From: Naegleria gruberi
Lineage: Eukaryota
Length of the DNA stretch: 2,375 bases
NCBI GenBank assembly: GCA_000004985.1
Contig: GG739266.1
Direction: 5' to 3' (one strand)
The translations under genes and the position numbers were made by a program. Below, one piece after another: positions 1 to 2,375 of the stretch (the stretch's first letter is position 1; each line of letters starts with the position of its first letter). The notes under the pieces were generated by a model. It was not told the origin of the DNA. It did no database searches and saw nothing but the letters and a program-made list of their open reading frames with translations.

Positions 1-164
1 ACTTCTGAAACTCCAACACCTCAACCAGAACCAGTTGTTAAATGTGGATCACTGAAGATGAAATAACTGTTATGGAAATGGTACTTGCATCAATGGTGTC
101 TGTGCTTGTAATTCAAACGTAAATGGTACATATTGCAATGAAACAAATTCTGATTCTCCAACCT
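1..164 (+). pseudogene. Frameshifted, degenerate copy of the repeat unit, near-identical to 561-743. It is either a decayed unit at the 5' edge of the array or an assembly or sequencing lesion.
   Basis: Positions 1-47 are identical to 561-607 and 1560-1606 and read TSETPTPQPEPVVKCG in frame 1. Relative to the sister copy at 561-743 there are four indels. 'ggtatcact' becomes 'ggatcact' (a 1-nt loss near 48). 'gatgagaataac' becomes 'gatgaaataac' (a 1-nt loss near 63). 'ccaacagaacc' becomes 'ccaacctgaacc' (a 1-nt gain near 163). 'atcaaatgtgg' becomes 'atttgtgg' (a 3-nt loss near 175). As a result the unit reads in frame 1 up to 47, in frame 2 from 65 to 163 (NCYGNGTCINGVCACNSNVNGTYCNETNSDSPT, then TGA at 164-166), and in frame 3 from 165 onward. 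Frame 1 ends in TAA at 64-66 and frame 3 has TAA at 120-122. None of the indel sites is a homopolymer. Confidence 0.45.
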
Positions 165-2375
165 GAACCAATTATTTGTGGTACAACTGAGGAAGAAAGC
201 AATTGTTATGGTAACGGCACATGTCTTGATGGATTGTGCATCTGTGTTGAGGGTATGAACGGAACATACTGTAATGAAACAACTGCTTCAGAACCTCAAA
301 TTCCAACTGAACCAGTTAAATGTGGATCAACCATTGAAGAAAATAATTGTTATGGAAATGGAACATGCGTAAATGGTATTTGTATTTGCAACTCTAATGT
401 AAATGGAACATACTGTAATGAAACAACTGCTTCAGATCCTCAAATTCCAACTGAACCAGTTAAATGTGGATCAAGTATTGAAGAAAATACTTGTTATGGA
501 AATGGAACTTGCATCAATGGTATTTGTATTTGTAATACAAACGTTAATGGAACCTTCTGTAATGAGACTTCTGAAACTCCAACACCTCAACCAGAACCAG
601 TTGTTAAATGTGGTATCACTGAAGATGAGAATAACTGTTATGGAAATGGTACTTGCATCAATGGTGTCTGTGCTTGTAATTCAAACGTAAATGGCACATA
701 TTGCAATGAAACAAATTCTGAATCTCCAACAGAACCAATAATCAAATGTGGTTTCACTGAAGATGAGAATAATTGTTATGGAAATGGTACCTGTATTGAT
801 GGAATTTGTGTTTGTTACGGAAGTGCAAATGGCACATTCTGTAATGCAACAGAAACAAAGATACCAGGTCAAACAGAACAAATTAACTGTGGTATAACTA
901 TAGATGAGAACACTTGTTACGGAAATGGTACTTGCATCAATGGTGTTTGTAATTGTGATGTTGGTGTGAATGGCACTTATTGTAATGAAACAACACATGA
1001 GCCTCAACCAGAACCTGTTGTTAAATGTGGTTTCACTGAAGATGAGAATAATTGTTATGGAAATGGAACTTGTTTGAGTGGTGTCTGTATTTGTAATTCA
1101 AACATTAATGGTACATATTGCAATGAAACAAATACAGAACCAGTTACTCCAGAACCAGAACCTGTCAAATGTGGTGAAACATTGGAAGAAAATAACTGTT
1201 ACGGAAATGGAACCTGTTTAAATGGTATTTGTGTTTGTAAGTCAAACATTAATGGTACATATTGCAATGAAACTACATCAGAACCAGTTATCCCACAACC
1301 AGTACCAATTAAATGTGGTGAAACATTGGAAGAAAATACTTGTTATGGAAATGGTACATGTGTAAATGGTATTTGTATTTGCAACTCTAATGTAAACGGT
1401 ACTTTCTGTAATGAAACAACTCCAGAAACTCCAATTCCACAACCTGAACCAATTAAATGTGGAACAACCATTGAGGAAAATAGTTGTTATGGAAATGGAA
1501 CATGTGTAAATGGTATTTGTATTTGTAATACAAACGTTAATGGTACATTCTGTAATGAAACTTCTGAAACTCCAACACCTCAACCAGAACCAGTTGTTAA
1601 ATGTGGTTTCACTGAAGATGAGAATATTTGTTACGGAAATGGAACTTGCATTAATGGTATTTGTGTTTGTAATTCAAACATTAATGGTACATATTGCAAT
1701 GAAACTACATCAGAACCAGTTATCCCACAACCAGTACCAATTAAATGTGGTGAAACATTGGAAGAAAATACTTGTTATGGAAATGGTACATGTGTAAATG
1801 GTATTTGTATTTGCAACTCTAATGTAAACGGTACTTTCTGTAATGAAACAACTCCAGAAACTCAAATTCCAACTGAACCAGTTAAATGTGGATCAACCAT
1901 TGAAGAAAATAATTGTTATGGAAATGGAACTTGCATGAATGGTATTTGTGTTTGTATTACCAACGTTAATGGAACCTTCTGTAATGAAACAAGTCATGAG
2001 CCTCAACCAGAACCTGTTGTTAAATGTGGTTTCACTGAAGATGAGAATAATTGTTATGGAAATGGAACTTGTTTGAATGGTGTCTGTATTTGTAATTCAA
2101 ACATTAATGGTACATATTGCAATGAAACAACATCAGAACCAGTTACTCCACAACCTGAACCAATTAAATGTGGTGAAACATTGGAAGAAAATACCTGTTA
2201 TGGAAATGGTACATGTGTAAATGGTATTTGTATTTGCAACTCTAATGTAAACGGAACATTCTGTAATGAAACAACTCCAGAAACTCCAATTCCCCAACCT
2301 GAACCAATTAAATGTGGATCAACCATTGAGGAAAATAGTTGTTATGGAAATGGAACATGTGTAAATGGTATTTGT
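123..2375 (+). CDS. Partial CDS: the 3' end runs off the window and the 5' boundary is unreliable. The product is a secreted or surface-type protein made of about 15 tandem EGF-like cysteine-rich modules separated by Pro/Thr/Glu-rich linkers, and it is probably heavily N- and O-glycosylated.
   Basis: I translated the + strand by hand with codon starts divisible by 3. After the TAA at 120-122 there is no stop through 2375, about 750 codons. About 15.5 units of 46-48 aa follow, each with six Cys at EGF-like spacing: KC-x9-C(YGNGT)C-x4-C-x-C-x8-C then NET. The unit period is always a multiple of 3 (144, 141 or 138 nt), so the frame holds across the array. Differences between copies are often synonymous (tgt/tgc, tat/tac, ggt/gga/ggc, aat/aac), consistent with purifying selection on the protein. 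The ATG at 123-125 is only the first in-frame Met. It falls inside repeat sequence read out of frame (the 'aaatggtacat' of an NGT motif), and MVHIAMKQILIL... is not a convincing signal peptide. The repeat frame is properly restored only from about 165 (gaa cca att att tgt ggt). The true start is therefore probably upstream of the window, or the 5' copy is defective. Confidence 0.78.
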   Translation, partial: MVHIAMKQILILQPEPIICGTTEEESNCYGNGTCLDGLCICVEGMNGTYCNETTASEPQIPTEPVKCGSTIEENNCYGNGTCVNGICICNSNVNGTYCNETTASDPQIPTEPVKCGSSIEENTCYGNGTCINGICICNTNVNGTFCNETSETPTPQPEPVVKCGITEDENNCYGNGTCINGVCACNSNVNGTYCNETNSESPTEPIIKCGFTEDENNCYGNGTCIDGICVCYGSANGTFCNATETKIPGQTEQINCGITIDENTCYGNGTCINGVCNCDVGVNGTYCNETTHEPQPEPVVKCGFTEDENNCYGNGTCLSGVCICNSNINGTYCNETNTEPVTPEPEPVKCGETLEENNCYGNGTCLNGICVCKSNINGTYCNETTSEPVIPQPVPIKCGETLEENTCYGNGTCVNGICICNSNVNGTFCNETTPETPIPQPEPIKCGTTIEENSCYGNGTCVNGICICNTNVNGTFCNETSETPTPQPEPVVKCGFTEDENICYGNGTCINGICVCNSNINGTYCNETTSEPVIPQPVPIKCGETLEENTCYGNGTCVNGICICNSNVNGTFCNETTPETQIPTEPVKCGSTIEENNCYGNGTCMNGICVCITNVNGTFCNETSHEPQPEPVVKCGFTEDENNCYGNGTCLNGVCICNSNINGTYCNETTSEPVTPQPEPIKCGETLEENTCYGNGTCVNGICICNSNVNGTFCNETTPETPIPQPEPIKCGSTIEENSCYGNGTCVNGIC
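1221..1430 (+). repeat. Higher-order repeat copy A of the 432-nt (three-unit) super-period.
   Basis: The roughly 210-nt block 1221-1430 recurs at 1653-1862, an offset of exactly 432 nt, with a single mismatch that I could find (aag at 1238-1240 versus aat at 1670-1672). Unit types cycle as FTEDEN, ETLEEN, (S/T)TIEEN through 1023-2375. Confidence 0.9.
1653..1862 (+). repeat. Higher-order repeat copy B of the 432-nt super-period.
   Basis: Near-identical to 1221-1430 (see above). The linker 'ccaattccacaacctgaacca' in copy A is replaced by 'caaattccaactgaacca' after the block ends. Confidence 0.9.

Follow-up and report, generated by a model that had tools for sequence, protein, structure and literature searches.

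The window (the whole stretch of DNA analyzed here) is 2375 nt long, has a G+C content of 34% with a GC3 of only 14.5%, and is filled by one array of tandem repeats whose period is about 144 nt. Both of its ends fall within this array, and the gene from whose interior it comes encodes a long series of tandem EGF-like modules joined by Thr/Pro/Glu-rich linkers. The odd extent of 2375 nt, together with the position of both ends inside the repeat, suggests that the window may represent an entire short contig broken within the array. Frame 3 has no stop codon from position 123 through the window end. Downstream of the first unit, 15 complete units and one partial unit have lengths of 138 to 144 nt, each a multiple of 3, and all are read in frame 3. 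This agrees with an earlier reading of the DNA made from its letters (hereafter the sequence-only reading), which had described all sixteen other units as keeping perfect frame.

The frame-3 units encode 46 to 48 residues with the consensus CGxTxEENNCYGNGTCxNGICICNSNVNGTYCNETT, which is then followed by a linker of Thr, Pro, Glu, and Gln residues. Each unit carries six cysteines and three N-x-T sequons, all of which are invariant, and the cysteines C1, C10, C16, C21, C23, and C32 retain the EGF spacing in all 15 units. When the 15 intact units were compared over the 35 core codons that align without gaps, pN/pS was 0.22, and the columns that vary at codon positions 1, 2, and 3 numbered 10, 13, and 31 of 35, respectively. 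Because pN/pS is low and the variable columns are concentrated at the third codon position, the frame-3 array is genuine coding sequence that has been under purifying constraint in the past. Furthermore, no competing stop-free alternative frame, RNA family, or minus-strand gene was found anywhere in the window. Positions 1242-1431 and 1674-1863 form an exact internal repeat of 190 nt, and the array holds hundreds of repeated k-mers (up to k=141). The most divergent unit is unit 2 (177-320), which is at most 79% identical to any other unit.

The modules belong, as judged from profile matches, to the tenascin/teneurin type of the EGF-like superfamily. Among Pfam families, EGF_Teneurin (PF23106) matches 15 stretches with 176.7 bits against a curated cut-off of 24.3 (E-value 7.5e-53), EGF_2 (PF07974) scores 129.9 bits against a cut-off of 22.1 (E-value 4e-38), and EGF_Tenascin (PF18720) scores 48 against a cut-off of 25. 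As in arrays of this type (PF23106, PF07974, PF18720, and EGF_integrin PF23105), the modules are arranged head to tail with the pattern C-x8-C-x5-C-x4-C-x-C-x8-C. Unlike in those arrays, the modules do not abut but are separated by Thr/Pro/Glu/Gln linkers of 10 to 16 residues, and each unit has its three invariant sequons. The EGF fold is characterized by 1-3, 2-4, and 5-6 disulfides. An AlphaFold2 model of one unit, computed with 15 units as the alignment, reached a mean pLDDT of 55.6, which is too low to confirm this fold, and contains a beta-hairpin at 14-17/20-23. The product is probably a repetitive EGF-like glycoprotein that is predicted to be secreted or located at the cell surface, and the base composition points to an AT-rich, probably eukaryotic source.

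An identification as tenascin or teneurin proper is not supported. The window consists of EGF units only, with neither the FN3 and fibrinogen domains of tenascin nor the transmembrane and YD/NHL regions of teneurin, and a 2.4-kb fragment cannot show a full architecture.

Searches for relatives returned distant proteins. A HMMER scan of 1.84 billion representative proteins identified generic EGF arrays from diverse eukaryotes as the nearest matches, with 38-49% identity over the EGF cores and a best E-value of 6e-11. By sequence, the sole match in the PDB is an EGF module of reelin (E-value 2e-6), and a word-indexed protein search gave only one weak match. No related DNA or second copy of the locus was recovered from viral, metagenome, and genome collections when exact and degenerate DNA patterns were used, and protein-guided locus searches likewise had no match in any of these collections. 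A blastn search of phage sequences found nothing related, an exact look-up of the partial product did not find it, and a motif search of the literature gave no match. Since the array's EGF-repeat glycoprotein is without a close relative among about 15 billion predicted proteins, the organism or the gene family appears to be poorly sampled.

The first unit of the array departs from this regular organization. The features discussed below are listed in Table 1.

Table 1. Features of the EGF-like array and of its frame-broken first unit
Feature	Position	Strand	Remarks
Linker tail of upstream unit 0, TSETPTPQPEPVVK, frame 1	1-42	+	Exact copy of 567-608 and 1560-1601
Unit 1, EGF-like, with broken frame; its 134 nt are not divisible by 3	43-176	+	Near-copy of unit 5 to ~160
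Lesion 1: unit 5 has GGTATC, of which one T is absent here; shift from frame 1 to frame 3	47-48	+	Junction GTTAAATGTGGATCA (37-51) occurs verbatim at 315, 459, and 1881, at starts of S-type units
Lesion 2: unit 5 has GATGAGAAT, of which one G is absent here; shift from frame 3 to frame 2	61-62	+	Plain one-base loss, no hybrid signature
Lesion 3: out-of-register switch from unit-5-type linker (SESPTEPIIK) to PQPEPIK-type linker; frame 2 to frame 3	153-163	+	17-mer match at 2294
Intact array, 15 complete EGF-like units plus partial 17th	177-2375	+	Frame 3, open to window end
Sister copy, comprising the end of unit 4 and all of unit 5	567-746	+	1-~160 is a near-exact duplicate of its first part

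Unit 1 is closest to unit 5 (609-746), to which it is 92% identical with gaps counted, and its identity to the other complete units is 67-83%. The sequence-only reading had noted that positions 1-47 match the sister copy completely, and this is borne out: they match both 567-613 and 1560-1606 with 100% identity. It had placed the sister copy at 561-743, which is six bases off, because the copy starts at 567 and the segment from 1 to ~160 corresponds to 567-~725. Over this segment, lesions aside, identity is ~99%, with two substitutions and two one-base deletions. Specifically, a T is missing after position 47 and a G after position 61, and substitutions are found at 127 and 154. Homology to unit 5 ends at ~153-162, and the sequence from there on is the tail of a PQPEPIK-type linker. 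A forced alignment to unit 5 past ~160 requires the insertion of one base at 162, three substitutions (164, 173, and 176), and the loss of 3 nt after 175. When the T and the G are restored and base 162 is removed, the segment reads TSETPTPQPEPVVK-CGITEDENNCYGNGTCINGVCACNSNVNGTYCNETNSDSPTEPII-CG, a perfect EGF unit. This repaired unit differs from unit 5 only by a change of E to D and by one missing Lys, and it has no other sign of decay.

The reading frame through unit 1 was followed by using codon-phase anchors. TGTGG at position 43 lies in frame 1, TGTTATGG at 68 and TGCAATGA at 134 lie in frame 2, and TGTGG at 177 lies in frame 3, which is the frame of every such anchor in the later units. 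Stop codons at 64 (frame 1), 120 (frame 3), and 164 (frame 2) block each frame in turn. Both lines of evidence confirm the earlier description of a frame that jumps from 1 to 3 to 2 to 3, and the return to frame 3 occurs near 160.

At the lesion sites, the sequence as given reads GGATCACT (46-53), GATGAAATAAC (57-67), and CCAACCTGAACC (158-169). The junction at lesion 1 is GTTAAATGTGG|ATCA, a verbatim 15-mer of the S-type units. At lesion 3, CCAACCTGAACCAATTA (158-174) is an exact 17-mer of the unit 16 linker. Positions 145-181 can be aligned, gap-free and in frame 3, with two PQPEPIK-type linkers, those of units 16 and 10, with 6 mismatches in 37 positions to 2281-2317 and 7 mismatches to 1426-1462, versus 22 mismatches in an ungapped comparison with unit 5. 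Both linker types carry the string A(A/T)TC(T/C)CCAAC in different codon registers, and a switch at this shared string therefore shifts the frame. The sequence-only reading had listed changes of -1, -1, +1, and -3 nt. The two single-base losses stand as it gave them. The "+1" and "-3" are better described as a switch of linker type, since the gap-free alignment makes the "-3" vanish and leaves three frame-breaking sites rather than four indels. Its remark that no indel lies in a homopolymer run is roughly true, except that base 162 can be written as a change of C to CC and that the loss of G62 creates an AAA run. The argument that it drew from this remark against simple long-read homopolymer error bears on only that one type of error.

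To assess the hybrid junctions, all possible single-base deletions (170) and insertions (680) were introduced in silico into the sister copy, and each product was examined for an exact match elsewhere in the array that spans the altered site with at least 4 nt on each side. A spanning match was produced by 5 of the 170 deletions, and only one of the 170, which is the deletion actually observed, reaches 15 nt. Among the insertions, 6 of 680 produce a spanning match and none reaches 17 nt. Because verbatim hybrid junctions of the observed lengths are rarely or never reproduced in this simulation, lesions 1 and 3 are out-of-register mixtures of repeat variants and not random point indels. The two junctions share 4-5 nt (ATCA and CCAAC) with both of their parental variants.

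The distribution of the lesions is also uneven. All three frame-breaking sites lie within positions 47-163 (~120 nt), and none is present in the following 2.2 kb. If frameshifts were placed uniformly, the probability that three would be clustered in the first 176 of 2375 nt is ~4e-4. The proportion of indels relative to substitutions in the segment from 1 to ~160 is likewise high (P of 0.03-0.05, given an assumed typical indel share of ~10% under neutrality).

The most probable explanation, in which we place middling confidence, is that the lesions are a hybrid or mis-joined consensus of repeat copies and do not exist in the genome. We infer this technical cause from the presence of hybrid junctions at two of the three lesions, their location at the edge of the window, an array that is otherwise flawless, and the 190-nt exact repeat. 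The repaired unit 1, which is complete and free of other decay, points in the same direction. Contig ends and repeats are error prone, and arrays rich in long exact repeats are of the kind in which assemblers mis-join or collapse copies. Our literature search on error rates at contig ends returned generic assembly papers only. Among the three possibilities put forward by the sequence-only reading, namely an interrupted gene or pseudogene, a gene that starts downstream of the lesions, and a consensus drawn from different repeat copies, the last is the best supported.

Under this explanation, consensus building or read joining across near-identical copies would have failed at the poorly supported edge of a short fragment made up of repeats only. 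Sequence from the unit 4/5 region (567-~725), or sequence closely like it, would have been merged with other unit variants, and an out-of-register linker would have connected the merged sequence to unit 2. In addition, one base would have been dropped. The left 160 nt may thus be a slightly erroneous image of 567-725 that was wrongly attached to unit 2. Known collapsed-repeat or hybrid consensus errors resemble the present case in having lesions at the edge of a repeat-only fragment, exact mixtures of variants (here two), a clean remainder, and a long exact repeat in the array. Frameshifts at the edges of repeat-only contigs, when they consist of verbatim mixtures of variants, constitute a recognizable signature of consensus or mis-join errors.

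Several observations run against a technical origin. The outermost 47 nt are perfect, whereas the decaying tail of a read should be worst at its very end, and lesion 2 is a simple loss of one base; in both respects the case differs from known errors of this type. The 3' edge of the window has no comparable damage. Finally, microhomology-mediated template switching between units in vivo could equally make hybrid junctions.

Indeed, the lesions may, with appreciably lower probability, be genuine. In that case, the unit 4/5 region would have been duplicated recently, and the duplicate would have been struck by a clustered, error-prone event, such as microhomology-mediated template switching or slippage among repeat variants, and the gene copy or allele would be interrupted. 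This would leave a young pseudogene, or else an N-terminal product that is truncated, with the array downstream remaining untranslated. The frame is disrupted unambiguously in the deposited sequence, as expected for a pseudogene, and the few nucleotides that the junctions share with both parents are what microhomology-mediated events would leave behind. Such rearrangements are known to be frequent in tandem arrays, and the clean positions 1-47 argue against a simple low-quality read tail. An otherwise intact and recently constrained array broken by small indels is likewise what is seen when repetitive surface-protein genes have become young frameshift pseudogenes or inactive alleles. If the lesions are real, they would represent a microhomology-mediated, out-of-register exchange among EGF modules that inactivates a surface-protein gene.

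The fit of the lesions to an interrupted gene is nevertheless poor. Gradual decay of a pseudogene predicts scattered lesions and far more substitutions than indels. The observed lesions do not conform to gradual neutral decay because they are clustered in one unit and because indels are about as numerous as the ~2 substitutions that accompany them; in both respects they also differ from typical young frameshift pseudogenes. A single complex event must therefore be invoked. The downstream array was strongly constrained in the past, and no relaxation of this constraint is seen past the first lesion, given that the 2.2 kb downstream have no stop or frameshift and that unit 1 is perfect once repaired. 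Furthermore, no independent copy of the lesion was found in the collections searched. The present evidence does not justify annotating this fragment as a pseudogene or splitting it into two genes. Whichever cause applies, the frame-broken first unit is an ordinary phenomenon and most likely not a biological feature.

A more elaborate version of real hybrid junctions is improbable. Out-of-register template switching between repeat variants would have silenced or truncated the gene for a highly repetitive surface glycoprotein in an unsampled AT-rich eukaryote, or the window would lie in a promoter-less reservoir of EGF modules that serve as donors for gene conversion. If true, this would be a eukaryotic on/off or variation mechanism that acts through the repeat array itself.

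Even less probable is a gene that starts downstream of the lesions, with unit 1 as a decayed noncoding remnant at the 5' border of the array. The divergence of unit 2 would be consistent with such a border, as units at the edges of arrays are often divergent, and in-frame ATG codons are present at 123 and 138, the only ones that shortly follow the last frame-3 stop. However, the product of this ATG start, MVHIAMKQILILQPEP, is an off-frame reading of an EGF unit, and other units yield an identical string in frame 1. Its hydrophobic core is only 4 residues long, which is too short, and the profile is not like that of a signal peptide, which a protein made of disulfide-bonded EGF modules alone requires for export. 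G+C content stays at 36-40%, without the AT-rich drop of an intergenic region. Unit 1, at ~99% identity to an in-frame unit, is young rather than decayed, and positions 1-42, a perfect copy of a linker, continue the array upstream.

It is barely credible that the cell overcomes the frame change, whether by removing the damaged unit through splicing, by programmed ribosomal frameshifting, or by editing of the RNA. A search of Rfam found no RNA element in the window, and frameshifting would need three successive shifts. Positions 1-180 contain no XXXYYYZ slippery heptamer. Five GT...AG pairs do link frame 1 to frame 3 without a stop, but in four of these the first cysteine of unit 2 would be lost, the remaining pair (44-315) would turn two coding-like units, whose composition is that of normal coding sequence, into an intron, and five is the number of solutions expected from chance GT and AG dinucleotides.

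A search of 1.84 billion representatives of ~15 billion proteins did not reveal any close relative of the protein encoded by the array of EGF-like units in frame 3. The lowest E-value among the matches is 6e-11, and identities run from 38-49% over generic EGF cores. Likewise, no close relative of this protein was found in viral, metagenome, or prokaryote-genome DNA collections. Judging from these searches, the source organism or family behind the protein is effectively unsampled.

Every unit of 177-2312 carries the same three invariant N-x-T sequons (N13-G-T15, N28-G-T30, and N33-x-T35), which amounts to 46 sequons in 737 residues, and the linkers between units are Thr/Pro-rich. 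The protein is devoid of Arg and Trp, its 11 Phe residues are all encoded by TTC, and GC3 stands at 14.5%. Together, the sequons, linkers, and composition suggest a heavily glycosylated extracellular protein from an AT-rich eukaryote.

The 3' portion of the array has a three-unit higher-order period (TRF period 423; offsets 432 and 999), in which the unit types CGFTEDEN, CGETLEEN, and CG(S/T)TIEEN roughly alternate. Identity reaches 94-97% among units 10, 13, and 16, and is 94% between units 8 and 15. This periodicity, combined with the presence of near-identical units, indicates that block duplication or gene conversion occurred recently.

Coordinates of the array features
Feature	Length (nt)	Position(s)
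Frame 3 protein		165-2375
Unit 2		177-320
Unit 6		747-887
Three-unit period		1026-2375
Exact repeat	190	1242-1431, 1674-1863
Exact repeat	82	996, 1995
Exact repeat	70	295, 1861
Linker-plus-start string	47	1-47, 567-613, 1560-1606

The longest exact repeat has copies of perfect identity that are offset by 432 nt (three units), and two shorter exact repeats are also present. Fifty 141-mers in the window are non-unique, and therefore an unambiguous unit order is impossible for a short-read assembly.

Units 2 and 6 are the most divergent, with at most 79% and 74% identity, respectively, to every other unit. Only unit 2 has Ile before the first Cys, this residue being Lys or Asn elsewhere, and the second half of unit 6 is aberrant (CYGSANGTFCNATETKIPGQTEQIN). 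Finally, the three copies of the linker-plus-start string (TSETPTPQPEPVVKCG) have zero differences, yet the units downstream of them do differ.
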